DNA of 64,000 nucleotides from Pseudomonadota bacterium (lineage in GTDB: Bacteria; Pseudomonadota; Gammaproteobacteria; Thiotrichales; Thiotrichaceae). Below the pieces are notes generated by a model that was not told where the DNA came from, searched no databases, and worked only from the letters and a program-made list of their open reading frames with translations. The stretch lies in assembly GCA_002747435.1 (NCBI GenBank), contig PDPH01000052.1:4416-68415 (forward strand), read 5' to 3'. Below, one piece after another: positions 1 through 23,204 of the stretch (position 1 is the stretch's first letter; each line of letters starts with the position of its first letter). The position numbers and the translations under genes were made by a program.

Positions 1-806
1 TTGCCATTACGGGCTTTACGGCAAGCAATTGGTCACAAGCCTTGAACTTTGATTTATTACTGCCACGTCATGCTGAGCAGGCTGCTGAATTGCATACCGT
101 CACTCAATATTTAAATCAAGTGTATGTCGCCTCGCTGGCTGATATAAGCAAGGCAACAAGTTTAAGCCAAGCCACTTGTCGTGCGGCGCTGCAACAAGCT
201 TGTCAGCAAGGCTTAATCACCTACGATCCAGCGCGACAAGTCTATCGTTATCGCCCGCTCACGGCAGAACCTTTAGACATGGATCAATTCCAATTCCGCC
301 AACCTGAAGAAGCTTTGGCCTATGACTTATTAGAACGCCAAAAAGCCATTACTGAACTACACATGCAGTTGCTACCTCATGAAGGCGTGGAAATCAGTGC
401 TGAAATCAAAGTGAAGGAAGATCAACGCGAATATCTAAGCAAGTTGCGTCTCAATGAAGAAGGCCATGTCGCCCATGCAGCATGCAGTTGCCATAAAATA
501 ATGCAGCAAGGTTTAACCCAAGGCCCTTGTAGCCATTTGCTGGCCTTACGCCTCGCTTATGCCGCCAAACTAGCCAAGCGTGACCCAAGCCTGATTACGC
601 AAGAGACTCGCATTTTTACTCGTCGTAAAAATAGCCATCAGGACTTGATCCAAGTGACTTTAAATCATAAACGCCTGCTCATTCAACGCGACCTCCATCA
701 TCAGCCCAAACAACAACAGTTTGCATTTAATTCGGTGGCTAAAGCACGGCAAGCCTATTTGAGCCAGATTGCTCAACTGGAAATGATTGGATTTATTGAG
801 GGCTAA
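1..806 (+). CDS. Winged-helix + SWIM zinc-finger protein, 5' end outside the window (retron-accessory candidate)
   Basis: Frame 3 is open from the window edge, so the listed TTG at 42 need not be the start. There is a wHTH-like stretch (SLADISKATSLSQATCRAALQQACQQGLITYD). The SWIM signature CxC-x12-CxH is CSCHKIMQQGLTQGPCSH at nt 483-536. The stop lies 4 nt before the RT start codon. Confidence 0.75.
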   Translation, partial: AITGFTASNWSQALNFDLLLPRHAEQAAELHTVTQYLNQVYVASLADISKATSLSQATCRAALQQACQQGLITYDPARQVYRYRPLTAEPLDMDQFQFRQPEEALAYDLLERQKAITELHMQLLPHEGVEISAEIKVKEDQREYLSKLRLNEEGHVAHAACSCHKIMQQGLTQGPCSHLLALRLAYAAKLAKRDPSLITQETRIFTRRKNSHQDLIQVTLNHKRLLIQRDLHHQPKQQQFAFNSVAKARQAYLSQIAQLEMIGFIEG

Positions 807-810
807 GGGC

Positions 811-2097
811 ATGGCAAAGCAGACTAAACTGGAAAAACTGTGGACTGAGATTGAAAAAGCGGGTAGCCGTGATGCTTATATTCAAGAGCAATTACGCAAA
901 AACGGCTTTATGGTGCAACGACGTTCTACTGATAATTTATCCAAAAGCGAGCTAGAAAAATATAAACAAGAACTCAAAAAAGAAGCGGCTGAAAAACGTC
1001 GTCTACAACAAGCAGCCTGGGCAGCTTATAAAACGCAACATATTGTGCATTTAGGTGAGGGTATTTATTGGACGGATGACACCAGCGCTGATCAATGGGA
1101 TTTGGATAATGCCCACAAACGCCTATTAGCCAATCAATTGCCCCAGCTAACGCGCGTCAAGCATTTAAGCGATGCTTTAGGTTTATCCATTGCCGAACTG
1201 CGCTGGCTGTGTTACCAGCGTGATGCTGCACTCAAAACACATTATACTCGTTTTGAAATCCCCAAGCGCAGCGGCGGTGTACGAGCGATTTGGGCTCCTT
1301 TGCCCAAGCTCAAGCAAGCCCAACGCTGGATTTTAGATCATATTCTGGATCGCTTATTGGTACACGGTGCTGCGCATGGTTTTTTAATGGGGCGCTCGAT
1401 TGCCAGTAATGCAGCTGAGCATAGCGATAGCCAGATACTGGTGAAAATGGATATTGCAGACTTTTTTCCCAGCATCAGTTGGAAACGCATCAAAGGCGTA
1501 TTTCGTAAAGCGGGCTACCCTGAGCAAATTGCCACACTATTGGCTTTATTGTGTACTGAATCGCCGCGTGAGCAGGTCGAGCACAATGGTCAATCTTATT
1601 ATATTGCCATGGCAGATCGCTGCCTGCCCCAAGGCACGCCCACCAGTCCTGCGCTCACTAATGCCTTGTGCCTTAAACTGGATAGGCGTTTGGCGGGCTT
1701 TGCGAGTAAAACAGCTTGGCGTTATACCCGTTATGCGGATGACTTGACTTTCAGCTTTCCAAACCATAGCACCTCAAAAGCCAATATCAGTCAACTATTG
1801 GGCACAGTCAAACGCATCTTAGGCGATGAAGGTTTTAAGCTTAATAACAGCAAAACCCGCGTAATACGGCAAAATACCGTGCATGAAGTCACCGGACTTG
1901 TCGTCAATGGCACACAAGCCCCCCGCGTTAAACGTACACTCAAACGCCAATTACGTGCAGCTATTCATAACCTAAAACAAGGTAAACCCTTGCCGGAGGG
2001 CGAAAGTATACAACGCTTAAAAGGCTATGCCGCATACATTGCCATGACTGAGCGCGAACTGGGCTTGAAGATGCTGGCAGAGTTGGATAATGTTTAG
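811..2097 (+). CDS. Reverse transcriptase, retron-type, with a long N-terminal extension
   Basis: ATG at 811 is preceded by a GAGGG Shine-Dalgarno. RT motifs appear in order: NAAEH (nt 1408-1422), DIADFF, LPQGTPTSP, YADD (nt 1732-1743), NSKTRV, VTGLVVNG (nt 1888 onward). NAxxH and VTG are retron RT hallmarks. Confidence 0.9.
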   Translation: MAKQTKLEKLWTEIEKAGSRDAYIQEQLRKNGFMVQRRSTDNLSKSELEKYKQELKKEAAEKRRLQQAAWAAYKTQHIVHLGEGIYWTDDTSADQWDLDNAHKRLLANQLPQLTRVKHLSDALGLSIAELRWLCYQRDAALKTHYTRFEIPKRSGGVRAIWAPLPKLKQAQRWILDHILDRLLVHGAAHGFLMGRSIASNAAEHSDSQILVKMDIADFFPSISWKRIKGVFRKAGYPEQIATLLALLCTESPREQVEHNGQSYYIAMADRCLPQGTPTSPALTNALCLKLDRRLAGFASKTAWRYTRYADDLTFSFPNHSTSKANISQLLGTVKRILGDEGFKLNNSKTRVIRQNTVHEVTGLVVNGTQAPRVKRTLKRQLRAAIHNLKQGKPLPEGESIQRLKGYAAYIAMTERELGLKMLAELDNV

Positions 2098-2138
2098 AAC
2101 CCAGCGGGTTTGGCTTGCTTAGGAGCGGATGAGTACTG

Positions 2139-2525
2139 ATGAAATTCAGCGAAGAAGGTAAAAACACAGAGCAACGTATCCAAGCTTATGGTGAAGATTG
2201 GGTAAGGATCAATAATCAGCAACTGAATCAAGCTTGTATTGTCAGCCATAATCAGCTTTTAACAGATTGGAAGGTCACACATTTTAGTCAGCTTGAACCC
2301 GTACAGCTTAAAACCTTGCTGGATTGTGATGCAGATGTTTTTATTATTGGTACAGGCAAAAAACAACAATTACCTTCGCCGACTATTCATCGCGCTTTAA
2401 TTGAACAGGGTAAAGGCTTTGAAATCATGACTACGGCAGCGGCCTGTCGTACTTATAATGTTTTGCTAGGTGAAGGGCGCAAAGTGGCTTGCGCCCTGTT
2501 TTTTGATACTGGATTAGTTGCTTAA
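2139..2525 (+). CDS. Mth938-like (DUF498/NDUFAF3 family) protein
   Basis: 128 aa with the typical pattern ([13 protein letters not shown]...[19 protein letters not shown]). Its stop codon overlaps the stop of convergent rpoS (nt 2522-2525). Confidence 0.75.
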
Positions 2526-3544
2526 ATGCCCAATAGACTTTCGCAAGAAAAGCCTTGGTTTTCTAAAATACGCCGCAAACGCTTGAGCGCATCCATTTGA
2601 ATTTGGCGCACCCGCTCACGAGTCAAACCCAGCTCCGCACCGACTTGTTCTAAAGTGGCACGCTCATAACCATGTAGACCAAATCGGCGCACTATCACTT
2701 CTTTTTGTTTCTCTTCGAGTAAACCCAACCAGCTTTCTACAGAGTGCCCTACGTGCTCTTCTTCCAATACAGCCGCAGGCTCCTGATCTTCTTCCATCGG
2801 CACAAAGTCAACCAAAGGACTATCGCCCTCTTTACCGACTGGCATATCTAACGAAGAAATATACTCATTAAAGCTTAATAGACGGCGTACACTTTCTACT
2901 GATTTACCTAATGCGTCAGCGACTTCCGCCATACTAGGCTCACGTCCCAACTGCTGGGTCATTTCCCGCATTTTACGCATATAAGCATTCAGCTCTTTAT
3001 TGACATGAATCGGCAAACGGATAGTACGTGTCTGATTCATTAAGGCACGTTCAATATTTTGCCGAATCCACCAAGTGGCATAAGTGGAAAAACGAAAACC
3101 ACGCTCAGGGTCAAACTTCTCCACCGCATGGATCAAACCCAAATTACCTTCCTCAATCAAGTCTAACAAGGGCAAGCCGCGCCCCATATAACGACGGGCA
3201 ACCTTAACGACCAAGCGCAGATTACAAGTAATCATTTTTTTGCGACCATATTGATCGCCTGAACGCGCCAAACGGCCAAAGTAAATTTCTTCTTCTGAAC
3301 TTAGCAAAGGGGAAATTTCAATTTCGCGCAAGTAAAGATGGGTAGCGTCTCTATCCGCTTTCTGGGACAGAGCGTCAGCCCGCACCGCGACAGAAGCACC
3401 CGAATCAGGATACGCTTCTGCTGTTAAATTATCATTGGGCGCAAGATCAGTTTCATCAAATTTTTCGACCTCTAGTGCCAAGCTATCTTCGTCCAGCACA
3501 TAATCATTTTTTTTGAGGCTGACATGCGTCTGTAAGTTGTGCAT
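2522..3544 (-). CDS. rpoS: RNA polymerase sigma factor RpoS (sigma-38)
   Basis: Sigma-70 regions 1.2 to 4 are present: [68 protein letters not shown]. Size and acidic N-terminus fit RpoS. An AAGGAG SD sits 8 nt upstream of the ATG. Confidence 0.88.
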
Positions 3545-9214: not shown

Positions 9215-10090
9215 CTAGACTATTCTAGCCTCCCCTAAAAAGACTTGCACATTATCAATCAAACGTGCCTTACCCAACCAAGCAGAGACCAAAATGACTA
9301 AATCCTTATCGCCTGCTTCAGGTTCTTGCAGGTCACAACTGCGGCGAACTTCAAAGTATTCCGGGCGGAAACCATGTTCAGCCAAATGGCCAATCATAAT
9401 TTGCTGGATTGGTTCATAATCTTCATAAGATCGACTGCCTAGCTGTATCACTTGTTGGGCAGCTTCCTGCAAGGTCTGGTGCAAGTAAGGAGCTTGCTGG
9501 CGCTGTTCGGGAGTGAGATAGCTATTACGTGAGCTCATTGCCAGACCATCTTGTTCACGCACTGCCGTAACACCTTCAATGCGTACCTTCATATCCAGAT
9601 CTTGCACCATCTGGCGCACGACACGTAATTGTTGAAAATCCTTTTCCCCAAATACTGCCACCTCAGGCTGCACCAAATTAAATAGCTTACAGACTACCGT
9701 AGCCACGCCGGTAAAATGCCCCGGGCGCTTTTCACCTTCCAATATATCGCTAATACCTGGCACTTCAACACGGGTACGCAAACGCCCTTGTGGGTACATG
9801 CTTTCAGGTGTAGGCGCAAATACCAAGTCAGTGTTCAAGGCTTTTAAGCAGGTACAATCTGCATCCAATGTTTTAGGATAAGCCGCCAAATCTTCAGCAC
9901 GATCAAACTGAGCTGGATTAATGAAAATGGACACAATCACTTTGCTGCCTAACTGCTGTGCTCGCTGCACTAGCGCGAAATGCCCACCATGCAAGTTACC
10001 CATTGTTGGAACAAAAGCAATCGTTTCACCCGCCTGTTGCCATTGGCGGATTTGCGCTTGCAAGGCAGCAATATCATGAATCAATTTCAT
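9215..10090 (-). CDS. panC: Pantoate--beta-alanine ligase
   Basis: VPTMGNLHGGHFALV HIGH-like motif. Full-length resemblance to the PanC family as recalled. Confidence 0.93.
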   Translation of the reverse strand: MKLIHDIAALQAQIRQWQQAGETIAFVPTMGNLHGGHFALVQRAQQLGSKVIVSIFINPAQFDRAEDLAAYPKTLDADCTCLKALNTDLVFAPTPESMYPQGRLRTRVEVPGISDILEGEKRPGHFTGVATVVCKLFNLVQPEVAVFGEKDFQQLRVVRQMVQDLDMKVRIEGVTAVREQDGLAMSSRNSYLTPEQRQQAPYLHQTLQEAAQQVIQLGSRSYEDYEPIQQIMIGHLAEHGFRPEYFEVRRSCDLQEPEAGDKDLVILVSAWLGKARLIDNVQVFLGEARIV

Positions 10091-10099
10091 TCAAATACC

Positions 10100-10930
10100 T
10101 CAAACAAAACAATGTTCTTCTGCTGGGAAACTGCCATCTTTGACAGCCGCCACATAAGCACCTATCGCTTGAGGAATGCGACGTCCTTCCTGCATGAAAT
10201 CTTTGGAAAAACGCGGCGCACGCGGCGTAATACCCAGCATGTCATACAACACCAGCACCTGTCCGTCACAATCGCCACCGGCTCCAATGCCAATCACTGG
10301 AATAAATAACTCATCGGTAATTTGTTTGGCCAGTGCCACCGGCACACACTCCAAAATCAACAAATCAGCTCCCGCTCGTTGCAGGGCTAGCGCATCCTCC
10401 AACATTTGCTGTGCAACCGCTTCATCGCGCCCCTGCACACGATAGCCACCAAGCTTGTGAACAGACTGGGGCTGTAAACCAAGATGGGCGCAGACCGGCA
10501 CGCCATGATGAACTAATTGGCGCACTGTTTCGACTTGCGGCGCACCACCTTCGAGCTTAACCATATGGGCATTGCCCTCCTGCATCAAACGAGCCGTATT
10601 ACGCAAAGCCATTTCTGGCGAGGTATAGCTCATAAACGGCAAATCAGCCATCACGAGTGCATGTTCGTTCGCCGCCGCCACGGCTTTGGTGTGGTAGATA
10701 ATATCGTCTGTACTGACAGGGATGGTTGTCGCATGGCCTTGAATCACCATACCGAGTGAGTCGCCAATCAGTATAATATCGACACCTTCAGCATCCAATA
10801 CCCTCGCAAAACTCGCATCGTAAGCTGTTAACATGGCAATTTTCTCACCTTCGCGTTTCATCTTACGCAAGGTAGTAACGGTAACGCGGCTACGCTGAGC
10901 CGTTAATGCTGAAGTGGCTGGTTGATTCAT
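10100..10930 (-). CDS. panB: 3-methyl-2-oxobutanoate hydroxymethyltransferase
   Basis: MLTAYDASFA, LIGDSLGMV and VKLEGG motifs. It lies directly upstream of panC. Confidence 0.93.
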   Translation of the reverse strand: MNQPATSALTAQRSRVTVTTLRKMKREGEKIAMLTAYDASFARVLDAEGVDIILIGDSLGMVIQGHATTIPVSTDDIIYHTKAVAAANEHALVMADLPFMSYTSPEMALRNTARLMQEGNAHMVKLEGGAPQVETVRQLVHHGVPVCAHLGLQPQSVHKLGGYRVQGRDEAVAQQMLEDALALQRAGADLLILECVPVALAKQITDELFIPVIGIGAGGDCDGQVLVLYDMLGITPRAPRFSKDFMQEGRRIPQAIGAYVAAVKDGSFPAEEHCFV

Positions 10931-11363
10931 AGGCTGTTCCTCTTGGCTGGGGACAGTATAACCTGAAAAAAGCCACCAAAATCAAATTATTTTGCAGCGC
11001 ACAAGCCGTCAGTATAAGAGCCAGCTTTACCTTTCATTAAACAATACAACAACCCATATTCGGCATCCCATTGACAGGATAACCCTCTTCACGCTGTGCA
11101 AATCGCTTCATTTTATCCATAATACTTTCTGATGTTTTAACTCGGTAATAATACACAATACCTTCTAAATCAGCGCGCTAAAGATAATCATTGATACTTT
11201 CGTATAAATTTAACCGATAGGACAAAATATGTTCAGTCAGCACTTTGGCACTAGCTGTAGCAGACTTTTGATCTTGCAGACACGCGCAAACGCCTTAAAT
11301 TCAATGGCATCTCAATAAACAAGCCATGTACAATCAAGCTACGCACAACGGGGAGCACAATCA

Positions 11364-11564
11364 ATGTTGGTATCTTTGCTATTAGCCATCGCCGTATTAC
11401 TGATTTTTGCGGGAGTGGCCGTAGTCATTATTGGTTTAGTACGTTATTTTTTTCCTGCGGTTGAGAGTTTTTTTCCAGACGGCTTCAAAAAACCGCTATC
11501 ACTGCAATACGGCAGCTACTATTTACTAACAGGTCTATTAGTCTTATTGATTTTTGGCGGGTAA
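11364..11564 (+). CDS. Small two-TM membrane protein, hypothetical
   Basis: 66 aa with two hydrophobic helices and a GGGGA SD-like element 8 nt upstream. I recognise no homology. Confidence 0.4.
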   Translation: MLVSLLLAIAVLLIFAGVAVVIIGLVRYFFPAVESFFPDGFKKPLSLQYGSYYLLTGLLVLLIFGG

Positions 11565-11653
11565 GTATTGAAAAGAGATACCTGAAACCATCATGCCTTT
11601 TTCAGCCGGGCGGTGATGCTGTTATGATGCCATAACGTATCATCATAAACTAA

Positions 11654-12496
11654 ATGACAGGAGAAACAGTGGATAAACAGCAAAATACGGTAGCAGAGAA
11701 CCTTGCCCCCCTAGCGGATGGTAAACAAGAGAGACATCCACGCAAACGCGGAGTCTATCTGTTACCGAACTTGTTAACCACAGGTGCTATGTTCGCTGGA
11801 TTCTATGCGATTGTGGCTGCCATGCAGGGCAAATTTGAAGCCGCCGCAGTCGCTGTATTTATTGCCATGATACTGGATGGCTTAGATGGCCGGGTAGCAC
11901 GCCTCACGAATACGCAAACAGCCTTCGGTGCTGAATACGATAGCTTGTCCGATTTAGTATCTTTTGGCCTCGCACCCAGCTTGATCATGTATCAATGGGC
12001 ATTGGTACATTTACGTGAAATGGGAACGACTTGGGGTAAATTAGGCTGGCTGGTTGCTTTTATCTATGTTGCTTGTACAGCTTTACGCCTAGCCCGTTTT
12101 AATACGCAAATTGGCAAAGCTGATAAACGCTTTTTTACTGGACTGCCTAGTCCCACCGCAGCCGCCATTATGGTAGGTACGGTTTGGGTACTTCATGACC
12201 TGGATCTGGGGGGACGCAATTTACAAATTCCAGCATTATTACTCACCTTATGCGTTGGCTTACTCATGGTCAGCAATCTCAGCTATTACAGCTTCAAAAA
12301 CTTAAATCTGCGCAGCAAAATGCCTTTTGTGGTGATGCTAGCAGTATTACTAGGTTTTGCACTGGTCACCTTAGATCCTCCCAAAGTATTATTTACCTTC
12401 TTCCTCACCTATACCTTATCAGGCCCCGTATTGTGGCTAAATCGTGTTTATCGTCGCTATAAACGTCGCCGTAGTACAAGCAATTCTGACACCTGA
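11654..12496 (+). CDS. pssA: CDP-diacylglycerol--serine O-phosphatidyltransferase
   Basis: CDP-alcohol phosphatidyltransferase motif DGLDGRVARLTNTQTAFGAEYDSLSD and multiple TM helices. An alternative GTG start at 11669 has a better AGGAG SD. Confidence 0.88.
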   Translation: MTGETVDKQQNTVAENLAPLADGKQERHPRKRGVYLLPNLLTTGAMFAGFYAIVAAMQGKFEAAAVAVFIAMILDGLDGRVARLTNTQTAFGAEYDSLSDLVSFGLAPSLIMYQWALVHLREMGTTWGKLGWLVAFIYVACTALRLARFNTQIGKADKRFFTGLPSPTAAAIMVGTVWVLHDLDLGGRNLQIPALLLTLCVGLLMVSNLSYYSFKNLNLRSKMPFVVMLAVLLGFALVTLDPPKVLFTFFLTYTLSGPVLWLNRVYRRYKRRRSTSNSDT

Positions 12497-12757
12497 GCTA
12501 TAGAAATGCTTGAGCCATTGTGCATTTTGCTGTAGCTTTGGGGGACTTTCCAATACGACTATTGATACTCATGAAACAATGCAGTCTGACAGCTTGTCTT
12601 GCTACTTGCCTTTCAGGCTCGGGCTGCTGCTTGCCTGTTGCTCTGCTGCTGCGACTGCCCTGATTGGGCACATATACCAGCTTGCCTGACGAGGCGATAA
12701 TCCGTAAACCCAATCAGCATCTATTTAACCCAGCAGCAGAATACTGGAGTATTTACA

Positions 12758-14305
12758 GTGGCTAAAGAACCCTTAATTATTTTTGATACCACCTTGCGCG
12801 ATGGCGAACAAAGTCCTGGCGCTTCCATGACCCAAGCAGAAAAAATTCGCATTGCCCAAATGCTGGAAAAAATGCACGTCAATGTCATTGAAGCAGGCTT
12901 TCCAATAGCCAGCCCAGGCGACTTTGAAGCCGTAAAAGCTATCGCGGACATTGTTAAAGAAAGTACAATTTGCAGCTTAGCGCGCGCCTTGGATAAAGAT
13001 ATTGAGCGTGCAGCAGAAGCCATTCGTCCTGCCAATTCTGGGCGTATTCATACCTTTATTGCCACCTCTCCTATCCACATGCAGAATAAATTGCGCATGA
13101 CACCGGAGCAGGTGGTAGAACAAACGGTTCACGCTGTCAAAAAAGCGCGTAATTATACTGATGATGTGGAATTTTCCTGTGAAGATGCAGGTCGTTCCGA
13201 ATTTGAATTTTTATGCCGTGTGATAGAGGCCGCCATCCACGCGGGGGCAACAACCATCAATATTCCCGATACAGTGGGTTATCAAATCCCGCATGTTTTT
13301 GGCGAAATGGTTGGCCGATTAATTCATACGATCCCCAATGCGGACAAGGCTATTTTTTCCGTTCACTGTCATAATGATTTGGGTCTGGCTGTCGGTAATT
13401 CACTGGCTGCGGTTATGCAGGGCGCACGCCAAGTCGAGTGTACCATTAATGGTTTGGGTGAACGTGCTGGTAATGCTTCTTTGGAGGAAATTGTTATGGC
13501 GATTCGTACCCGTCACGATATTTTCCCTGTGGAAACCCCTATAGATGCCACCCAAATCGTGCCCACCTCCCGCTTAGTATCCAGCATTACAGGCTTTACA
13601 GTGCAACCGAACAAAGCCATTGTCGGTGCAAATGCTTTTGCGCACGAATCCGGCATCCATCAAGACGGCGTAATCAAACATCGGGAAACCTATGAAATTA
13701 TGTGTGCCCAAGATGTTGGCTGGTCAGATAATAAAATGGTCTTAGGCAAGCACTCAGGAAGAAATGCCTTGTATACCCGCTTACAGGAATTAGGCATTGA
13801 ACTGGCCACTAAAGAGGAGCTTGATGCAGCCTTCTCCCGCTTTAAAGATTTAGCAGACCGTAAACATGATATTTACGATGAAGACCTGCATATGCTCGTA
13901 ATGGAATCACGTCAGGACACAGAAAATGCGACTTATGAATTAGTTTCTTCTAAAGTATGCTCTGAAACGGGCGAGTCGCCACACGCCAGCGTCACACTGA
14001 AAGTGAATGGCGAAGAGAGACAAGGTGAAGCAACGGGTGGAGGGCCGGTAGATGCCGTTTTCAAAGCCATCAAAGTGATTACGGGTGAAGAAGCTAGTTT
14101 GCAATTGTACTCAGTTAACAATATAACCAGCGGCACGGATGCCCAAGGCGAAGTCACCGTCCGCTTGGAACAGGCAGGCCGCTTAATACATGGGCATGGT
14201 GCTGATACCGATATTATTATTGCCTCTGCAAAAGCTTATGTAGATGGCCTCAATAAACTGATCACCTGCCAGCAACGCGCTCATCCACAACACGACGGAG
14301 TCTAA
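12758..14305 (+). CDS. leuA: 2-isopropylmalate synthase
   Basis: N-terminus [15 protein letters not shown], the [10 protein letters not shown] motif and a C-terminal LeuA regulatory domain. GTG start with a GGAG SD. Confidence 0.95.
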
Positions 14306-15115
14306 ATGAGTTTGGATCTGCAAACCCGCCGTCGCTACATGAAAGCTCTGGGTATTCCCGTGTGGATACCCAGAGCCACGCCGAACACAGCCGACTCAGA
14401 GTCTAGCTCCGCACCGTCGCCGCGTCCTGCTGCAACTGACTTAGATACCTTATTTAATGAACCGCCCCCAAGCCACTTAAGTCAGTTAGACCATCAACAA
14501 ACCGTAACAGCTTCTGCACACCCCAGCACTCCACAGCTAAAAGCACCTGATTGCAGTGATTTAGATTGGGAAGCTTTGCAAGAAACCGTTAAAACTTGTG
14601 AGCTATGTAAGCTACATAAAACCCGCACGCAGACTGTGTTTGGTACAGGTCATCATGAGGCAGACTGGATGATTGTGGGCGAAGCACCCGGAGCAGAAGA
14701 AGACCGGCAAGGCTTGCCCTTTGTAGGACGTGCAGGTCAATTATTGAATAATATGCTGTCTGCCATTGGCTTACAACGTGAACAGATCTATATCTGCAAT
14801 ATACTCAAGTGCCGTCCGCCGAATAATCGTGACCCCAAGCCTGAAGAATCCGCCTTATGTCGAGCTTATCTACAACGCCAAATTACGCTAGTGAATCCAA
14901 GACTAATACTGGTAGTTGGCCGCATTGCAGCGCATAATCTGCTACAAACTGATACACCTTTAGGAAGGCTGCGCGGCAAACTGCATTATTTACCAGGGAG
15001 TGACTTGCCAGTAATTGTCACTTATCATCCCGCCTATTTATTACGGCAACCTCGAGAAAAACGTAAAGTGTGGCAAGACTTATTACAAGCCAAACGTGTT
15101 ATGCAGGGAACTTAA
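14306..15115 (+). CDS. Uracil-DNA glycosylase, family 4
   Basis: CELCKL...TVFGTGHHEADWMIVGEAPGAEEDRQGLPFVGRAGQLL and TYHPAYLLR motifs, with a low-complexity N-terminal extension. Confidence 0.88.
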   Translation: MSLDLQTRRRYMKALGIPVWIPRATPNTADSESSSAPSPRPAATDLDTLFNEPPPSHLSQLDHQQTVTASAHPSTPQLKAPDCSDLDWEALQETVKTCELCKLHKTRTQTVFGTGHHEADWMIVGEAPGAEEDRQGLPFVGRAGQLLNNMLSAIGLQREQIYICNILKCRPPNNRDPKPEESALCRAYLQRQITLVNPRLILVVGRIAAHNLLQTDTPLGRLRGKLHYLPGSDLPVIVTYHPAYLLRQPREKRKVWQDLLQAKRVMQGT

Positions 15116-15152
15116 CGACTTTAGCAGTTGGCAGGATGAAAACGGGGGCTGG

Positions 15153-15620
15153 ATGGTAAACATGGGATCGCTATTATCCTTACACCCCATGACGGAATCC
15201 GATTTAGACACCGTCATGGCCGTAGAGAAACGCGCTTATCCTTATCCTTGGACAAAAGGTATTTTCAGCGATTGCTTGCGGCATAATTACCTATGTCTAC
15301 TGCATGCAAAACAAGGTAAGCTGTTGGCCTATTGTGTACTCATGTTATCGCTGGATGAGTTGCACATACTGAATTTAACCGTTAATCCCAATCATCAAAA
15401 ACAAGGTTTGGGAACACGTTTACTGTATACAGTGGAAAAAATTGCGCAAGAACTCAATGCCAGAGAATGCTTTCTGGAAGTGCGTCCTTCCAACAGGGCA
15501 GCCATTTGCCTTTATACAAAACAGGGCTTTAATGAAATCGGGCTACGCAGAAACTATTATCCCGCCAAACACGGTCGGGAAGATGCCGTACTGATGGGGA
15601 AAACCTTGATTGATTCGTGA
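15153..15620 (+). CDS. rimI: Ribosomal-protein-alanine N-acetyltransferase (GNAT)
   Basis: GNAT motif A (HQKQGLGTRLL) and a RimI-like length. The track ORF starts at 15015 but overlaps UDG, so ATG 15153, 15162 or 15189 are more plausible starts. Confidence 0.8.
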   Translation: MVNMGSLLSLHPMTESDLDTVMAVEKRAYPYPWTKGIFSDCLRHNYLCLLHAKQGKLLAYCVLMLSLDELHILNLTVNPNHQKQGLGTRLLYTVEKIAQELNARECFLEVRPSNRAAICLYTKQGFNEIGLRRNYYPAKHGREDAVLMGKTLIDS

Positions 15621-15646
15621 TGAGGCTAAGCAGGAATAGTGATTAA

Positions 15647-17002
15647 GTGAATTGGAATGCTATCATGTCGACCTTGGGCAATATCCTTGGAACACAGTCA
15701 GGTTTGGAAACAGAATCCGTGAATCCGGTACGCATTCCCGCAACGGTGCACAATATACAAACGCAATCTATCTGTCCTCGTGCAGATAGCATCATCCGCA
15801 AATTACAACAGGCTGGTTTTGAAGCTTATTTAGTTGGCGGCTGTGTCAGGGATCTATTGCTTGGCTATACCCCCAAGGATTTTGATATTGCGACCAGCGC
15901 TCAACCCGAGCAAGTACGTAAACTATTTTCCAGCGCTCGTCTTATTGGTCGCCGCTTTCGCTTGGCACATATTTATTTCGGTCGTGATTATATTGAAGTC
16001 GCCACCTTCCGTGCGCCCCATGCTGACAATCAGCGAGGTGGACGGGTGAATGAACAAGGGCGCATTATTCATGACAATGTTTATGGCACTATCAAAGAGG
16101 ATGTTTGGCGGCGCGACTTTACAATCAATGCCTTATTTTATGATCCTGCCACTGGTGAAGTCATTGATTATGTGGGGGGCATTCAAGACTTACGTGACAA
16201 ACGTATTCGTCTGATTGGTGAACCGGAACAACGCTACCGCGAAGACCCGGTACGCATGTTACGTGCCTTACGTTTTGCAGCCAAATTGGATACCCTGCCA
16301 GAAGGTCAGACCCGTGATCTGATTGGTGAATTGGGCTACTTATTGGAGGATGTAGCCCCTGCCCGCTTGTTCGATGAATTGTTGAAAATGTTACACAGTG
16401 GGCGTGGCTGGAAAACACTGCAATTGCTAGAAGAATACGATTTATTGCAGTGTTTATTGCCACTCACCCATGAAAGCCTAGCAGAAGATCCCGAAGGTAC
16501 ATTTCGTCCACTTATTCAGGTCGCACTGCAAAACACAGATCGACGTATCGCCGAAGGCAAAACAGTCATGCCGGCCTTCTTGTTTGCTGTTTTGCTTTGG
16601 GAGCAGATGACCCATCTCGCTGCCCAATTTCGCGAAGAGGGGCATCCCGAAGTACAAAGCTTACAATTAGCCGCTGCCGATATTTTGCGCGAGCAGGTAA
16701 ATACCACCGCTATTCCACGCCGTTTCAGCAATATTACCCGTGAAATCTGGGCTTTACAGCCACGTTTCCGTCACCGCGATCTGCGGCGTGCTAATATCTT
16801 GATCAATAATCCACGTTTTCGGGCGGCTTATGACTTCCTTTGCTTACGGGCTGCGGCTGGGGAAAATGTTAAAGACGACTGTGAATGGTGGAACAAGTTC
16901 ATTGAGGCTTCACCAGAAGAAAAGCAAGCGATGTGCAAACCGCCCCATAAAAAACGTCGTAAAAAACGCAGTAAAGCAAAAAGCTCGGAAAATGCCTCAT
17001 GA
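15647..17002 (+). CDS. pcnB: Poly(A) polymerase I
   Basis: LVGGCVRDLLLG...DFDIAT nucleotidyltransferase motif and a basic C-terminal tail, followed by folK as in many proteobacteria. The start could instead be ATG 15665. Confidence 0.92.
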   Translation: MNWNAIMSTLGNILGTQSGLETESVNPVRIPATVHNIQTQSICPRADSIIRKLQQAGFEAYLVGGCVRDLLLGYTPKDFDIATSAQPEQVRKLFSSARLIGRRFRLAHIYFGRDYIEVATFRAPHADNQRGGRVNEQGRIIHDNVYGTIKEDVWRRDFTINALFYDPATGEVIDYVGGIQDLRDKRIRLIGEPEQRYREDPVRMLRALRFAAKLDTLPEGQTRDLIGELGYLLEDVAPARLFDELLKMLHSGRGWKTLQLLEEYDLLQCLLPLTHESLAEDPEGTFRPLIQVALQNTDRRIAEGKTVMPAFLFAVLLWEQMTHLAAQFREEGHPEVQSLQLAAADILREQVNTTAIPRRFSNITREIWALQPRFRHRDLRRANILINNPRFRAAYDFLCLRAAAGENVKDDCEWWNKFIEASPEEKQAMCKPPHKKRRKKRSKAKSSENAS

Positions 17003-17520
17003 GTATGGCAACAGCGGAAACGGTCTGCTGCTATATTGGTTTAGGCAGTAATCAGGGAGAACCGCTGGCTACGCTGCACTCAGCTTTGCAACATTTAAAT
17101 GCTAATCCACACACGTTTGTCGATGCGGTCTCTAATTTTTATCGTAGCAAACCTGTTGGCCCACAAGATCAGCCTGATTATGTTAATGCTGTAGCATGTC
17201 TACAAACCCAGCTTTCTACAGAAGATTTACTCGATTATTTATTAGCTGTAGAAAAACAGCATGGCAGAGTGCGTGACCCTGCATTGCGTTGGGGACCACG
17301 CACACTGGATTTGGATTTGTTACTATACGGTGATGCAATCATTCAAACAGAGCGTTTGACTGTACCACATCCGTTTTTATGTGAGCGCAGCTTTGTAGTC
17401 TACCCTTTGTTTGAATTAGTCGGCAATCTGAAATTACCGAATGGTGTCTGGCTAGATAACTATCGAGAAAAACTGTCTGCGAATGATTTAACACTGATCC
17501 CTGCAACGAATTCCTTATAA
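16999..17520 (+). CDS. folK: 2-amino-4-hydroxy-6-hydroxymethyldihydropteridine diphosphokinase
   Basis: IGLGSN...RWGPRTLDLDLLLYGD...LTVPHP motifs. ATGA overlap with the pcnB stop. Confidence 0.92.
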   Translation: MSMATAETVCCYIGLGSNQGEPLATLHSALQHLNANPHTFVDAVSNFYRSKPVGPQDQPDYVNAVACLQTQLSTEDLLDYLLAVEKQHGRVRDPALRWGPRTLDLDLLLYGDAIIQTERLTVPHPFLCERSFVVYPLFELVGNLKLPNGVWLDNYREKLSANDLTLIPATNSL

Positions 17521-17555
17521 CTGGATAACTGGCTAAATAAATCCGGCATAGCCCT

Positions 17556-18380
17556 ATGGAGCAAGAAGCTAAACAGCTATTTTGGCGCGATAAAAAGTTG
17601 CCTTATATTGAGGCTAGATCAGCTTATAATAGTAAAGCCTGTTATGAAAAGCATACCCATCCCAGCTTATCAATTGGCATCGTAGAAGCTGGCCTTAGCC
17701 AATACCAATATCAAAGAATGAATAAAACGATAGGTTCTGGTTCTATTGTTATTATTGATCCCGAGGAAATCCATGCCTGCAACCCCAAATCACATGAACC
17801 TTGGGCTTATAAAATGCTCAATATAGACCCCATTTGGCTGGCTAATTTAAAAGGTGAGATAAATCGCGGCATTGTAAAATACGGTTATTTTAATCAAGCC
17901 TATTTAGAGGATCCAGTAGTCTATGAAAGCATACGCTCTCTTTATGTTTTACTACTAAGCTCTACTGAACTTTTAGAAAAAGAAACGCAAATTATTCGAT
18001 TCTTTTCTGTGCTATTCAGTCGCTATGGCGACATACCGTTTCAAAGTCTAAAGGCCAAAGATAATCAGAAATTAAAGCTTGCCCGTCATTATATTGCCGA
18101 TAATTGCACTTCCAAGCTGAGTATTGATCAAATTTCTGCGGCCAGCAATTTAAGCAATTATTATTTAATCCGTGCTTTCAAACAAGCCTACGGCTTGACA
18201 CCTCATGCTTTTCAGATTGATCAAAGAATTAATTTATCCAAAAAAATGCTTAAATCGGGCATGAGCTTAGCAGAGGTAGCTTTCTCTGTTGGATTTTCAG
18301 ATCAGAGTCATTTTCACCGTTGCTTTAAAAAGCGCGTTGCTGCAACACCAAGGCAATACCAAAATAGTTTCATTACATAG
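17556..18380 (+). CDS. AraC-family transcriptional regulator
   Basis: N-terminal cupin-like domain plus a C-terminal double HTH (LSIDQISAASNLSNYYLIRAFKQAYGLTPHAF...GFSDQSHFHRCFKK). Confidence 0.88.
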   Translation: MEQEAKQLFWRDKKLPYIEARSAYNSKACYEKHTHPSLSIGIVEAGLSQYQYQRMNKTIGSGSIVIIDPEEIHACNPKSHEPWAYKMLNIDPIWLANLKGEINRGIVKYGYFNQAYLEDPVVYESIRSLYVLLLSSTELLEKETQIIRFFSVLFSRYGDIPFQSLKAKDNQKLKLARHYIADNCTSKLSIDQISAASNLSNYYLIRAFKQAYGLTPHAFQIDQRINLSKKMLKSGMSLAEVAFSVGFSDQSHFHRCFKKRVAATPRQYQNSFIT

Positions 18381-18388
18381 CATTGTAA

Positions 18389-19012
18389 TTAACTGCCTAA
18401 TGCCAATTTAAATCCAAGCCCAATCAGCAGAATACCGCTGACTTTTTCAACTTTACTTATAAAATTTGCAAAAAATAACTTGACATTTTCTGAACTAATA
18501 AGCCGTACTAATAATAAATCCCAACACAAGACAACCAGAAACATCCAAACTCCATAAAAAGTTTGAGTTATTATAGCGGTACTTTCATCAATCAGTACTG
18601 TAAATAAACTCAAATAAAAAATTGATATTTTTGGATTGAGCAAACTGACTATAAAACCATTGAGCAATGCCCGAGCAAAACTGCTCTTTACAACAAGAGA
18701 AGACTGTTCTTGTTGGAAAATATCATTAGTCGCCTTAGAAAAAAGCAATTTATATCCAAGAAAAAGTAAATAAGCAGCACCTAAATACTTAATCACTTCA
18801 TACAGCCCAGCTATCTTAGCGATAAACTGGAGACTGACCAAACACAGTGTTATATAGAAAGCATTAGCAAGGGAAATGCCGATACAGACACCGCTAGCAA
18901 TAGAAAACCTGAATAACAAGCTGGTTCTAAGGATTAAAATAAAGTCAGGTCCAGGGCTGAGTAAGGCAAGAAAATGAGCAGTGGCCACCATTATGAATTC
19001 ATTCGGCATCAT
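18389..19012 (-). CDS. LysE/RhtB-family amino-acid exporter
   Basis: LSPGPDF N-terminal motif and six hydrophobic segments. The start is placed at ATG 19012 (the track lists GTG 19039). It lies convergent (tail-to-tail, 8 bp apart) with the AraC regulator gene. Confidence 0.82.
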   Translation of the reverse strand: MMPNEFIMVATAHFLALLSPGPDFILILRTSLLFRFSIASGVCIGISLANAFYITLCLVSLQFIAKIAGLYEVIKYLGAAYLLFLGYKLLFSKATNDIFQQEQSSLVVKSSFARALLNGFIVSLLNPKISIFYLSLFTVLIDESTAIITQTFYGVWMFLVVLCWDLLLVRLISSENVKLFFANFISKVEKVSGILLIGLGFKLALGS

Positions 19013-19102
19013 ACTAGTCCTCAAAAGACTTCCTATCACTAAGTATTACTTAGAGGAAATATCCTTCAAGGCGAAAAAATAATATTGGACGAAATTGCCT
19101 AT

Positions 19103-19693
19103 TTACTGCTTCTGCCAGCACAAAATCCGATTATTTACAGGCATGGCGTAATCTTCTTGGAGCATCATTCCGGCTTGTTGTGCTAGCTGGTTCAAATCCT
19201 CAAAATTGCGCACTCCACTGGCAGGATTACGCTTTTTCAGCCACAGGTCGAAACGGGCATTGCTTTCACTGGTGAAACGTCCGTCATAATTAAACGGTCC
19301 ATAGACCACAAACAAGCCACCAGCCTTTAATAATTTACCAACTCCAGCAAAGCAAGCTTCCACCGCAGCCCAACTCATAATATGCAAGCTATTAGCACTA
19401 AATACAGCATCCACTACCAATTCAGGCCAAGGATCTTGCAATACATCCAGTGTCAATGGGGCTAAAACATTAGTCAACTGAGCATCAGCAATCCAAGCTT
19501 GGATACTAGGATGTGACTCGGGTAAATCGCTGCTTTGCCAAAGCAAATGCGGCAGATGAGCTGCAAAATAAACTGCATGCTGCCCAGTCCCACTACCGAT
19601 TTCCAGTACCTTGTGACAGGATTGCAATAAAGGCTCGATCACCTGCAAGATAACCTCCCTGTTCTGATCACAAGAAAGGGAGTGCTGTTTCAT
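19103..19693 (-). CDS. DUF938-type class I SAM-dependent methyltransferase
   Basis: VLEIGSGTGQH SAM-binding motif. ATG at 19693 overlaps the rnt stop (ATGA), so the longer track ORF start at 19759 is rejected. Confidence 0.8.
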   Translation of the reverse strand: MKQHSLSCDQNREVILQVIEPLLQSCHKVLEIGSGTGQHAVYFAAHLPHLLWQSSDLPESHPSIQAWIADAQLTNVLAPLTLDVLQDPWPELVVDAVFSANSLHIMSWAAVEACFAGVGKLLKAGGLFVVYGPFNYDGRFTSESNARFDLWLKKRNPASGVRNFEDLNQLAQQAGMMLQEDYAMPVNNRILCWQKQ

Positions 19694-20358
19694 AACTGTA
19701 CGCCGTCCTCGTCTGCTTTGGTTTTGACCGTATGGAATGCAGCATCCAAGGTCTGCCAAGTGTTTACAATATGACAGAAAATATCAGCAGTTTTTTCTAC
19801 ATCATATAAAGCTGAATGCGCTTCTTCGATATTCCAACTCATGCCTGCCGCCTGTGCAACACGCGCTAATACCGTTTGCCCATAGACCACCGCCCCCAAA
19901 GTCACCGTATCTAGGGTACTGAAAGGATGGAAAGGATTACGTTTGCAGGCAATACGTTCCGCAGCAGCCAACAAGAAACCGAGATCAAAAGGTGCATTGT
20001 GCCCCACCAAAATCGCACGGTTACAACGGTTAAGTTTGACTTCCTTACGCACAATTTTGAAAAAATCATTTAGTGCCTTGTCTTCCTGCACGGCCAGACG
20101 TAAAGGGCTATAAGGCTTTATACCGTTGATTTCCAGTGACTTAGGATCAAGGTTAGCATTGGGAAAAGGTTCAATATGCCAGTTATAACTGCGGTAACAT
20201 GACAACTCGCCTTTTTCATCAATACGCAAGATCACTGCTGCCAGTTCTAGCAGCGCATCCTTCTTGGCATTGAAGCCACCTGTTTCTACATCTACTACTA
20301 CCGGTAGGAAACCCCTGAAGCGATTGGCCAGCGGGATAATTTCAATTTCATCACTCAT
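19690..20358 (-). CDS. rnt: Ribonuclease T
   Basis: DEDDh exonuclease motifs (VVVDVETGGF, ILVGHNAPFDLGFL, HSALYD) and an RNase T-like N-terminus MSDEIE..LANRFRGFLPV. ATG at 20358. Confidence 0.9.
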   Translation of the reverse strand: MSDEIEIIPLANRFRGFLPVVVDVETGGFNAKKDALLELAAVILRIDEKGELSCYRSYNWHIEPFPNANLDPKSLEINGIKPYSPLRLAVQEDKALNDFFKIVRKEVKLNRCNRAILVGHNAPFDLGFLLAAAERIACKRNPFHPFSTLDTVTLGAVVYGQTVLARVAQAAGMSWNIEEAHSALYDVEKTADIFCHIVNTWQTLDAAFHTVKTKADEDGVQL

Positions 20359-20537
20359 AAGTTGAGAGCTTACCGGATGTGACAACAAATAGACAGAATC
20401 CTTTTTATTTTTATTTAAGCCAAATAATACTTTGATATTAAAACTTATTTTTTCTTTGTTGCACTGTACCTTTATTTTGCAAGCTACTAATGCTAAGTTA
20501 TTCGGCAAACTATCCACACAAAAAGAGGATAAGGATT

Positions 20538-23204
20538 GTGAGCAAAATCAACCAAACTATGCAAGACATTGATTCGCAGGAAACCCAAGAATGGGTAGAA
20601 TCACTGGATGCCGTCATTGAACAAGAAGGCATCAAACGTGCCCACTATCTACTGGAAAAACTCATAGATACGGCGCGTCTTAATGGTGCTAACCTACCCT
20701 ACTCTGCTAATACGGCTTATATAAACACCATACCGCCTCATCAGGAAAAATACACCCCCGGCAATCCAGCCATAGAAGTTCGTTTGCGTTCTTATATCCG
20801 TTGGAATGCAGCAGCAATGGTCGTACGAGCCAACCGACAAAGCACGGAACTCGGCGGCCACATTGCCACCTTTGCCTCAGCAGCCACCTTGTATGACGTG
20901 GGTATGAATCATTTCTGGCATGCGCCTTCCCCTCAAAATGGGGGCGACCTGATTTATGTACAAGGCCATGCCGCGCCAGGTATGTATGCCCGCTCTTATT
21001 TGGAAGGTCGCCTGAGTGAAGCCGATCTAGATCATTTCAGACAAGAAGTGGGCGGCGAAGGTCTAGCCTCTTATCCACACCCTTGGCTAATGCCACACTA
21101 CTGGCAGTTTCCAACAGTTTCTATGGGTCTGGGGCCGCTAATGTCTATTTATCAGGCGCGCTTTATGAAGTACCTGCAAGACCGCAAGTTAGCAGATACT
21201 GCCAATCGTCGTGTTTGGGCCTTTGTGGGGGATGGTGAGGTTGATGAACCAGAAACATTGGGTGCCATTTCACTGGCTGGGCGGGAGGCACTAGATAACC
21301 TTATCTGGGTAGTCAACTGTAACTTACAGCGCTTGGATGGTCCGGTACGTGGTAACGGTAAGATTATTCAGGAACTGGAAGCTGTATTCCGAGGCGCTGG
21401 CTGGAATGTTATCAAAGTCATTTGGGGCTCTTATTGGGATTCCTTGCTCGCCAAAGATACCGAAGGCCGCCTGAAAGCTCGTATGCTCGAAGTCGTTGAT
21501 GGCGAGTACCAAAATTACAAAGCCAAAGATGGTGCTTATGTGCGCGAACACTTTTTTGGGGCTGATCCCAAACTGCGGGAAATGGTGGCACAAATGAGCG
21601 ATGCAGACATTTGGCGTCTCAATCGTGGTGGGCATGACCCGCATAAAGTCTATGCTGCTTATTACGCTGCGGTGCATCATGAACAGCAACCGACCGTCAT
21701 TCTGGCACATACTGTAAAAGGTTATGGCATGGGGTCTGCGGGCGAAGGCCAAAACCGCACCCATCAACAGAAAAAAATGTCAGGCGAAGAAATGATCGCC
21801 TTTAAAAATCGTTTTAGCATCCCTCTCAGCGATGAAGATGCCGCCGCCGCCAATTATTACCGCCCGGCAGAAGACAGCGAAGAGCTTAAATACTTACAAG
21901 CACGTCGACAAGCCTTAGGAGGGTATTTGCCACAGCGGCAGACACATGCAACGCCATTAAAAGTACCTGCATTGGCTATTTTCAAGACCTTACTGGAAAG
22001 TAGTGGGGAAAGGGAAATGTCCACCACGATGGCTTTTGTCCGCATACTCACCATCCTGACACGTGACAAAGGCATTGGTAAACATATCGTACCGATTGTG
22101 CCTGACGAAGCACGCACCTTTGGCATGGAAGGCATGTTCCGTCAACTGGGTATTCACTCCTCGGTAGGGCAACTTTACGAACCGCAAGACCGAGATCAGG
22201 TCATGTTCTACAAGGAAGATAAATCTGGACAAATTTTAGAAGAAGGTATTAATGAAGCAGGTGCCATGTCCAGTTGGATTGCGGCGGCAACCTCGTACAG
22301 CAATCATGGCGTTAGTATGGTGCCTTTTTATATTTTTTACTCCATGTTTGGTTTCCAACGTATTGGGGATCTGGCTTGGGCTGCGGGGGATGTTCGTTCA
22401 CGCGGCTTTTTGATTGGCGGTACAGCAGGGCGCACAACTCTAGCTGGTGAAGGCTTACAGCACCAAGATGGTCAGAGCATGGTACAAGCTAGCCTAATCC
22501 CCAACTGTGTGTCATACGATCCCACTTTTGCTTATGAAATGGCGGTGATTATTCAACATGGCATGAAACGCATGTATGAAAATCAGGAAGATGTTTATTA
22601 CTACATCACTGCCATGAATGAAAACTATCATCACCCCGCCATGCCTAAGAATGCCGAGGAAGGCATTATCAAAGGTATGTATTTATTAGATGGTGGTGGC
22701 AAAAAGCGCAAAAAAGTGCAGTTACTAGGCTCGGGTAGCATACTGCGTGAAGTCATTGCTGCGGCGGCCATGCTGGACAAGGAATGGGGTGTAGATGCGG
22801 ATATTTGGAGTGTGACCAGTTTTAATGAATTGGCACGAGAAGCACGGGATGTAGAACGCTGGAATATGCTCCATCCACTGGAAGATACCCGTACACCCTA
22901 TGTTACACAATGCCTGAAAGATCGCCGTGGTCCAGCGATTGCCGCTACCGATTATATACACACTTACGCTGAGCAAATCCACGCTTGGATTCCAATGAAT
23001 TATCGCGTACTGGGTACAGATGGCTTTGGGCGCAGTGATACCCGCGCCCAGCTACGCAAATTCTTCGAGGTCGATCGTTATTACATAGTAATTGCCGCCC
23101 TGAAAGCCTTAGTGGATGATGGCTCTTTACCTGCTGCCAAAGTGGCAGAAGCCATGGAAAAATACGCTATTGATCCCAATAAACCCAACCCGGCCTACGT
23201 CTAA
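20538..23204 (+). CDS. aceE: Pyruvate dehydrogenase E1 component (homodimeric type)
   Basis: About 890 aa with ETQEWVESLDAVI, GGHIATFASAA and a GDGE ThDP motif. GTG 20538 has a GAGGA SD; ATG 20559 is an alternative. Confidence 0.95.
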   Translation: MSKINQTMQDIDSQETQEWVESLDAVIEQEGIKRAHYLLEKLIDTARLNGANLPYSANTAYINTIPPHQEKYTPGNPAIEVRLRSYIRWNAAAMVVRANRQSTELGGHIATFASAATLYDVGMNHFWHAPSPQNGGDLIYVQGHAAPGMYARSYLEGRLSEADLDHFRQEVGGEGLASYPHPWLMPHYWQFPTVSMGLGPLMSIYQARFMKYLQDRKLADTANRRVWAFVGDGEVDEPETLGAISLAGREALDNLIWVVNCNLQRLDGPVRGNGKIIQELEAVFRGAGWNVIKVIWGSYWDSLLAKDTEGRLKARMLEVVDGEYQNYKAKDGAYVREHFFGADPKLREMVAQMSDADIWRLNRGGHDPHKVYAAYYAAVHHEQQPTVILAHTVKGYGMGSAGEGQNRTHQQKKMSGEEMIAFKNRFSIPLSDEDAAAANYYRPAEDSEELKYLQARRQALGGYLPQRQTHATPLKVPALAIFKTLLESSGEREMSTTMAFVRILTILTRDKGIGKHIVPIVPDEARTFGMEGMFRQLGIHSSVGQLYEPQDRDQVMFYKEDKSGQILEEGINEAGAMSSWIAAATSYSNHGVSMVPFYIFYSMFGFQRIGDLAWAAGDVRSRGFLIGGTAGRTTLAGEGLQHQDGQSMVQASLIPNCVSYDPTFAYEMAVIIQHGMKRMYENQEDVYYYITAMNENYHHPAMPKNAEEGIIKGMYLLDGGGKKRKKVQLLGSGSILREVIAAAAMLDKEWGVDADIWSVTSFNELAREARDVERWNMLHPLEDTRTPYVTQCLKDRRGPAIAATDYIHTYAEQIHAWIPMNYRVLGTDGFGRSDTRAQLRKFFEVDRYYIVIAALKALVDDGSLPAAKVAEAMEKYAIDPNKPNPAYV

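Follow-up and report, generated by a model that had tools for sequence, protein, structure and literature searches.

The closest described relatives of the locus considered here are the type XIII retrons, a type that includes the founding myxobacterial elements Retron-Mxa1 (Mx162), Retron-Mxa2 (Mx65), Retron-Sau1 (Sa163) and Retron-Nex2 (Ne144) and in which the reverse transcriptase (RT) has a winged-helix/SWIM zinc-finger protein, cluster 114_1, as its partner (Mestre 2020, PMC7736814). A variant in which cluster 114_1 is preceded by clusters 259_1 and 1688_1 is described there as well. The RTs of Mx162, Mx65, Sa163 and Ne144 were reported to have an extended N-terminus (Simon et al. 2019, PMC6868368), and a 2026 preprint counts type XIII with those for which an msr-msd is "not yet identified". 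The DNA analysed here, called the window, is a stretch of 64,000 nucleotides from a gammaproteobacterium of the Thiotrichaceae (contig PDPH01000052.1, positions 4,416 to 68,415, assembly GCA_002747435.1), and, with near certainty on the sequence evidence, a type XIII retron operon of four genes has its 3' end in the first 2138 positions. Like the founding retrons, this one has an RT of the same clade with an extended N-terminus, a SWIM partner of the type assigned to them by Mestre 2020 and, in related loci, a long msd hairpin; its host is a gammaproteobacterium, unlike the myxobacterial hosts of the founding elements. The parts that fall within the window are as follows.

1 to 806, plus strand: 3' part of the winged-helix/SWIM gene, coding for the C-terminal 267 of about 610 amino acids, read from nucleotide 3 to the stop TAA at 804-806 and matched by PADLOC SWIM_XIII.
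81 to 251, plus strand: winged helix-turn-helix, fragment residues about 27-83, from Pfam, AlphaFold2 and Foldseek.
483 to 536, plus strand: SWIM zinc-finger signature CxCx12CxH, read from the sequence as CSCH-x11-CSH.
600 to 785, plus strand: C-terminus of the SWIM protein, a four-strand beta-meander and a helix in a part that the PADLOC model does not reach (AlphaFold2 predicted local distance difference test score, pLDDT, of 81-90 over residues 200-261).
798 to 802, plus strand: GAGGG, a Shine-Dalgarno-like sequence in the end of the SWIM gene, 8 nucleotides before the RT ATG, by sequence reading.
811 to 2097, plus strand: type XIII retron RT of 428 amino acids with intact catalytic motifs, from PADLOC RT_XIII and relatives of solved structure.
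811 to 1134, plus strand: N-terminal extension of the RT, about 100-108 amino acids with a Lys/Glu-rich helix; solved structures match from residue 109 onward only.
1408 to 1422, plus strand: NAAEH, the retron-specific NAxxH of region X, by sequence reading.
1732 to 1743, plus strand: YADD catalytic box, by sequence reading.
1888 to 1896, plus strand: VTG, retron-specific region Y, by sequence reading.
2098 to 2138, no strand: spacer of 41 nucleotides, where the retron operon ends on the right; the ATG of the following gene is at 2139 and the spacer has no non-coding RNA (ncRNA) match.

The RT open reading frame (ORF) begins with ATG at 811, stops with TAG at 2095-2097, and in addition to the motifs above contains DIADFF, LPQGTPTSP and NSKTRV, with VTG continuing as VTGLVVNG from 1888; the ORF and motif coordinates of an earlier, preliminary description of this DNA are all reproduced, as is its 41-bp interval between the RT stop and the next gene. 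The best PADLOC model is RT_XIII (E=7.2e-167, 554 bits, residues 3-427), the runner-up is RT_other at 303 bits, and the best 25 PADLOC matches are exclusively to retron RT models. Pfam assigns RVT_1 (E=1.4e-24) and NCBIfam retron_St85_RT, at 238 bits just over the cut-off of 235, and the best 14 matches among solved structures are to retron RTs only (Ec86, E=7.7e-38; Ec67, Ec78 and Ec83). That the enzyme is instead an RT of another class, i.e. a defence-associated RT (DRT) or member of the UG/Abi groups, a group II intron RT or the RT of a diversity-generating retroelement, with an unrelated SWIM gene for a neighbour, is effectively refuted. Secondary matches to such models occur (group II intron RT 58, Drt2 39 and Drt3a 35 bits), but the group II intron and DRT models reach at most 58 bits, far under their cut-offs and as expected of any RT, whereas the profile and structure matches lead to retron RTs throughout, NAxxH and VTG are both there, and the SWIM gene stands 3-4 nucleotides from the RT (56 in Minicystis) in an operon that recurs in several bacterial lineages. 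The choice of a retron RT over a group II intron or diversity-generating enzyme in the preliminary description is thereby borne out.

The N-terminal extension is shorter than first proposed. The alignment with Ec86, which spans RT residues 109-415, pairs residue 109 with Ec86 residue 16, so that the extension relative to the Ec86 RT comes to ~100 amino acids; the former figure of ~190 had included the first RT regions before NAxxH. The RT_XIII profile also spans the extension. On these matches the protein belongs to the Mx162/Ne144 clade of retron RTs and is intact, having YxDD, NAxxH and VTG together in an RT of the retron lineage, and it is placed with the type XIII RTs (clade 10) by RT_XIII as the best profile match.

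Adjoining the RT is a winged-helix and CxCx12CxH protein of the 114_1 type. It had been noted before as an ORF still open at the window edge, ending 4 nucleotides ahead of the RT ATG and combining a winged-helix-like segment with a SWIM finger, and each of these elements stands: SWIM_XIII matches the window fragment with E=1.7e-51 and 173 bits (profile positions 324-505 of 509), and the 610-residue homologue on contig PDWJ01000078.1 (L001, discussed below) with E=5e-182 and 604 bits. Searching both window proteins against the PADLOC retron profiles, as had been proposed, hence names RT_XIII and SWIM_XIII. The AlphaFold2 model of the 267-residue fragment (mean pLDDT 80.8) consists of the winged helix at 27-83, a beta-sheet with the SWIM finger at 120-191, and the meander and helix at 200-261. 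The winged-helix segment is modelled with pLDDT about 90, is matched by Pfam HTH_24 at E=0.0012, which is under the family cut-off, and resembles in Foldseek the IclR, GntR and MarR regulators, with pNOB8 AspA superposing at a root-mean-square deviation of 1.6 A over 59 residues; the whole fragment gives winged-helix matches only, and by sequence the SWIM protein has no match among solved structures. Zinc ligands C161, C163, C176 and H178 are conserved in at least 90% of 29 homologues, in a signature identical to that given for cluster 114_1 in Mestre 2020. The DEDE motif of type XIII SWIM proteins (Dx7[D]x4Ex30-32Dx37E) is present in the L001 protein as D117, D125, E130, D163 and E208, to the left of the window, and its residues are kept in full-length homologues; the last spacing is about 43 residues, not 37.

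The remainder of the operon is seen on L001, where an RT homologue (P0001) is 99% identical to that of the window. Since L001 is 98% identical to window positions 1-2600 and has the same downstream genes, it serves as a proxy for the DNA to the left of the window. Its four ORFs, all intact and full-length, encode in order a 1063-residue protein, a 2144-residue protein, the 610-residue SWIM protein and the RT, and they are tightly packed: gene 2 begins 2 nucleotides past gene 1, the SWIM gene overlaps gene 2 by 4 nucleotides, and the RT follows after a 4-nucleotide gap. A gap of 4 nucleotides also separates SWIM TAA from RT ATG in the window, and the 3-4-nucleotide spacing recurs in L001, L002, L017 and L018; together with the GAGGG sequence the short gap suggests translational coupling of SWIM and RT. 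PADLOC identifies the 1063-residue protein as HEAT-ARM_XIII PDLC02921 (E=2e-156) and the 2144-residue protein as HEAT-ARM_XIII PDLC02919 (2080 bits, full length), and Pfam finds a BRCT domain in the former and in the latter a WD40 beta-propeller at the N-terminus, along with many repeats of the HEAT_2 family. The one or two HEAT/ARM genes that precede the SWIM gene in type XIII are therefore found here on L001, outside the window, and the type XIII assignment of the preliminary description holds on the RT_XIII, SWIM_XIII and HEAT-ARM_XIII matches, with the amendment that there are two HEAT/ARM genes (1063 and 2144 residues) where one had been supposed.

Compared with the two-HEAT/ARM variant of type XIII (Mestre 2020, PMC7736814), the four proteins match PDLC02921, PDLC02919, PDLC02972 and PDLC02956 near or over their full length and in the same order; the CxCx12CxH signature, DEDE motif, winged helix and RT N-terminal extension are common to both, and there is no difference at the protein level. 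The locus adds one more member to a catalogued type, and each of its four proteins already has a PADLOC model. Operons with these four genes in this order occur in Thiolinea disciformis and further Thiotrichaceae, in Psychrobacter aquimaris and Minicystis rosea (a myxobacterium), and in several uncultured lineages or metagenome-assembled genomes, and gene-1 homologues carry NCBI names that include Planctomycetota, Myxococcales, Desulfobacteraceae and Sericytochromatia. Two GC-rich relatives of the operon, L014 and L016, are interrupted. In L014 a Y1_Tnp (IS200/IS605-like) gene at 12483-13034 follows gene 1 and the giant WD40/HEAT gene (13289-19751) is in three ORFs, and the L016 operon (12444-21236) has several small genes set among its own, DUF433 and DUF7336 among them.

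The template RNA of the retron is not adjacent to the RT. Rfam, pattern search, nhmmer and a covariance model detect no ncRNA in the window nor in the 10 kb 5' of the RT in L001, and Rfam, which has no fitting family, gives no retron msr match in the window or the related loci. In eight related loci an msr-msd is found upstream of gene 1, about 10-11 kb from the RT, in agreement with the earlier expectation that it should lie to the left of position 1. Four genome loci have upstream of gene 1 a near-perfect hairpin of 30-37 bp within a conserved element of ~250 nucleotides (~245). The fold check that had been proposed, a search for a1/a2 repeats flanking an msr-msd, when applied to the related loci returns the canonical retron fold (RNAalifold): an a1/a2 stem with a bulged G in UAGC (TAGC) at its inner end, an msr hairpin CGGCG-UUG-CGCCG that covaries, and an msd hairpin of ~135 nucleotides whose base and apex are conserved while the sequence of the middle stem is wholly different between loci and is nevertheless paired. 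The CGGCG hairpin is the second of the msr; the first (GAC-TTCG-GTC, GATC-TTCG-GATC, GTTCT...AGAAC) is a reading of the alignment only and is unpaired in the consensus fold.

The pairing was evaluated on an alignment of six sequences, in which 88.8% of cells are paired as against 33-42% with the partners slid, and 43 pairs are changed on both sides as against 12-18 in the slid controls; none of 500 shuffles attains the observed values. A covariance model built from the six sequences recognised two untrained examples (67% GC, 138 bits), both upstream of gene 1, in L014 and L016. In a seven-sequence alignment 96.3% of cells are paired and 30 of 30 middle-stem pairs covary, counts that lean towards structure because this alignment was fitted to the structure of the model. 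TAGC is the commonest context of the priming G in retrons and differs from the CAGC of Mx162 and Sa163 and the GAGC of Mx65 (Simon 2019, PMC6868368). If synthesis starts just 5' of a2 and ends at the base of the msd hairpin, the predicted multicopy single-stranded DNA (msDNA) would be about 140-150 nucleotides long, in the range of Ne144 and Mx162.

In seven of the loci the ncRNA is on the same strand as the operon, and in Psychrobacter aquimaris (L011) it is on the opposite one, at 9258-9512 on the minus strand with gene 1 at 10001-13000 on the plus strand; this inverted arrangement implies independent transcription, with the RT acting in trans. The interval from the ncRNA to gene 1 contains a hairpin with a run of T behind it at 6144-6177 in L005 and about 6190-6225 in L007, and a hairpin with a T-run or T-rich tail at about 4635-4665 in L004; examples, from sequence reading only, are AAAAGGGGTTAG...CTAACCCCTTTT and GGCCATTAT...ATAATGGCCTTTTTTTT. 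They resemble intrinsic terminators; a simple terminator scan found none of these because its limit on loop size was too small for their loops of 9-10 nucleotides. Weak promoter-like sites flank the ncRNA in L007 and L004, at a frequency not above that of shuffled sequence. The inverted copy, the hairpins with T-runs and the weak promoter-like sites together suggest that the ncRNA is its own transcription unit. In Mx162 the msr-msd reportedly lies immediately 5' of the gene for the RT. Here it is the SWIM gene that adjoins the RT, with the ncRNA of the related loci about 10-11 kb away. What may be new about the ncRNA is that it lies ahead of gene 1, varies in orientation and is apparently transcribed independently.

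Three other positions for the ncRNA were considered and rejected. The last 240 nucleotides of the SWIM ORF (567-806), first considered because the PADLOC model stops at fragment residue 188, are covered by homologues that extend over 100% of the fragment, encode the confidently modelled beta-meander and helix, have an excess of synonymous differences and give no nhmmer or covariance-model match. The space 3' of the RT offers 41 nucleotides and no match. The 670-nucleotide SWIM-RT gap of L014 has no covariance-model match and is filled by an array of palindromic repeats (21633-22257, period about 160 nucleotides, units of the CCTGCCGGGCAAGCCGGCAGG type). Separately, a second, higher-GC organism in the metagenome project of L001 has its own ncRNA copy and gene 1 (L009 4993-5236, contig PDWJ01004118.1), and a contig of the sister whole-genome shotgun (WGS) set (L010 940-1041, PDWI01300420.1) looks identical to it across the 102 nucleotides retained, which points to at least two type XIII retron hosts co-occurring in that sample.

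A further structural lead comes from P0124, a homologue of the SWIM protein that is 67% identical and reaches 200 residues further towards the N-terminus. In its structure model (mean pLDDT 66.5, with 70-87 within the domain in question and less than 50 in the N-terminal 88 residues) residues 90-202 form a beta-alpha-beta3 unit twice over, and the best 50 solved structures found by Foldseek are DNA sliding clamps only (PCNA, beta-clamp, 9-1-1), with E values of 2e-5 to 4e-3 and template modelling (TM) scores of at most 0.43. An invariant WGRRRL motif sits on the second helix. The domain corresponds to about 8860-9195 of L001, its last strand lying at about 3-20 of the window, where the fragment begins. 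With moderate confidence, then, the SWIM protein is predicted to have a sliding-clamp-like fold just N-terminal to the window fragment, as a lead and not a demonstration. Mutator/IS256-type transposases with a C-terminal SWIM domain likewise have an acidic motif of the DEDE type ahead of their SWIM finger, a comparison made in Mestre 2020 (PMC7736814); unlike those, the protein has no Pfam transposase match, and the domain modelled between the DEDE region and the winged helix appears clamp-like and not RNase H-like.

Relative to Ec86/Eco1 (type II-A) and the other anti-phage retrons of solved structure, Ec67, Ec78 and Ec83, the RT core is homologous and the logic of the ncRNA (a1/a2 stem, TAGC priming G, msd hairpin) is the same. 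In contrast, the RT has the extra ~100-residue N-terminal extension, the ncRNA is away from the RT, and the accessory proteins are of an entirely different kind. No effector of the NDT, ATPase, HNH, Toprim or TIR kind is among them; all three are large, together about 3800 amino acids, and look non-enzymatic. The mechanism that can be proposed on this basis extrapolates its defence function from retrons of types I, II and VI. The ncRNA would be made as a separate transcript, on which the RT would work in trans, priming from the 2'-OH of the TAGC guanosine and copying msd into the hairpin msDNA. The SWIM protein would bind the msDNA-RT complex by means of its winged helix, SWIM finger and sliding-clamp-like domain, and the two giant BRCT/WD40/HEAT scaffolds would join msDNA, RT and SWIM protein into a large surveillance complex. 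Interference of a phage with the msDNA would then release an effector activity, for which the best candidate is the DEDE region, acidic and conserved, at the SWIM protein's N-terminus, and lead to abortive infection. Taken as a whole, the explanation, in which the identity as the tail of a type XIII retron is near certain and the defence mechanism is extrapolated from other types, is given a confidence of about 0.85.

A number of observations weigh against it, beginning with the ncRNA of this genome itself. By its position in L001 the start of gene 1 is about 10.65 kb left of window position 1, so that the ncRNA is expected at about -10.7 to -11.2 kb; a copy about 11 kb left of position 1 would be in keeping with the related loci, but it is unseen, the window ending inside the SWIM gene. 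The leftward extension of 3-5 kb suggested as a check in the preliminary description would thus miss it. An exact 23-base pattern of the ncRNA matched PDWJ01004118.1 but not PDWJ01000078.1 of the same WGS set, and either the ncRNA of the latter differs at one or more positions or its contig was outside the collection searched. Moreover no ncRNA was recognised by nhmmer or the covariance model in Minicystis (L012) or L013, which have only ordinary GC-rich hairpins. The unseen ncRNA of this genome, the outcome of the pattern search and the disrupted operons of L014 and L016 could be taken as signs of an orphan or decaying locus in which RT and SWIM gene persist, the ncRNA or upstream genes are lost or inactive, and no msDNA is made. 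Such decay is very improbable, given that L001, 98% identical, has each of its four ORFs intact and at full length, that the catalytic and zinc-binding residues in the window are likewise intact, and that synonymous codon differences between window and L001 exceed non-synonymous ones, with 18 against 6 for the RT and 8 against 3 for the fragment of the SWIM protein; the 23-base pattern is also a strict one, which the Psychrobacter ncRNA fails as well.

The other objections concern function. In none of the three accessory proteins does Pfam find an enzymatic effector or toxin domain, the operon is flanked by housekeeping genes and not by a defence island, Mestre 2020 (PMC7736814) notes signs of vertical inheritance for type XIII, and the clamp-like call comes from a model whose mean pLDDT is 66, with TM scores no higher than 0.43. 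Several of these points favour a genuine type XIII retron domesticated as a cellular system, in which the msDNA and the giant scaffolds would serve a host process, for example sensing linked to DNA damage or replication, with no toxin and no part in abortive-infection defence. BRCT, a weak WGR match and the clamp-like fold are modules typical of DNA-repair proteins; RT homologues of 70-77% identity are abundant in Thiothrix and Thiolinea assemblies; a correlation with 16S and the suggestion that some such retrons are domesticated are found in Mestre 2020; and vertical inheritance and host-like codon usage were noted for myxobacterial members (Simon 2019, PMC6868368). Domestication is judged unlikely but is still a serious rival, because no enzymatic effector domain is detectable and no functional study was found. 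Against it, the retron types tested for which a function has been found so far are all anti-phage, the chromosomal position differs in each of four Thiotrichaceae genomes, the Psychrobacter locus adjoins Fic/RhuM genes, the insertions that break the L014 and L016 copies are typical of dispensable islands, and the family is patchy across phyla. What follows the RT differs among the four Thiotrichaceae genomes and in each consists of housekeeping genes, which start right past the RT stop.

In the window the retron is followed by a DUF498 gene (2139-2525, plus strand), which overlaps tail to tail by 4 nucleotides a convergent RpoS/RpoD-like sigma-70 gene (2522-3544, minus strand). Beyond are a cluster of DUF3106, DUF3619 and extracytoplasmic function (ECF) sigma genes and then tgt and panBC, ordinary core genes with no defence gene among them. 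The 64-kb window (1-64000) contains no tRNA gene, and no Rfam family matches it at gathering threshold.

It is decidedly unlikely, although of interest if true, that four-gene type XIII retrons work unlike any characterised retron, with a template supplied in trans, a clamp-like SWIM protein and non-enzymatic scaffolds. The template RNA may in that case be an independent gene on either strand, 10-11 kb from the RT and with its own terminator-like hairpin in several loci; the predicted clamp-like domain with its WGRRRL helix could encircle or ride the long duplex stem of the msDNA; and the other ~3200 amino acids may be BRCT/WD40/HEAT scaffolds without enzymatic activity. The output would then be assembly, sequestration or DNA-damage-type signalling and not a classical toxin, which might account for the founding Mx162-type retrons yielding no phenotype.

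For the type XIII retron and its proposed defence mechanism, the locus matters as one of a type that includes the earliest retrons discovered and for which the literature searched holds no assigned function, functional study, solved accessory protein or defence phenotype. The earlier statement that the type is uncharacterised is accurate as to function and defence but not as to msDNA synthesis, which was classically characterised because the type includes Mx162, Mx65, Sa163 and Ne144. Since the ncRNA is separate and distant, a construct of the RT with 5 kb of upstream DNA would lack the template. The comparison of loci provides a map for experiments, consisting of the full operon, a covariance-supported msr-msd at its 5' end, a predicted priming G and msDNA, and the sliding-clamp lead.

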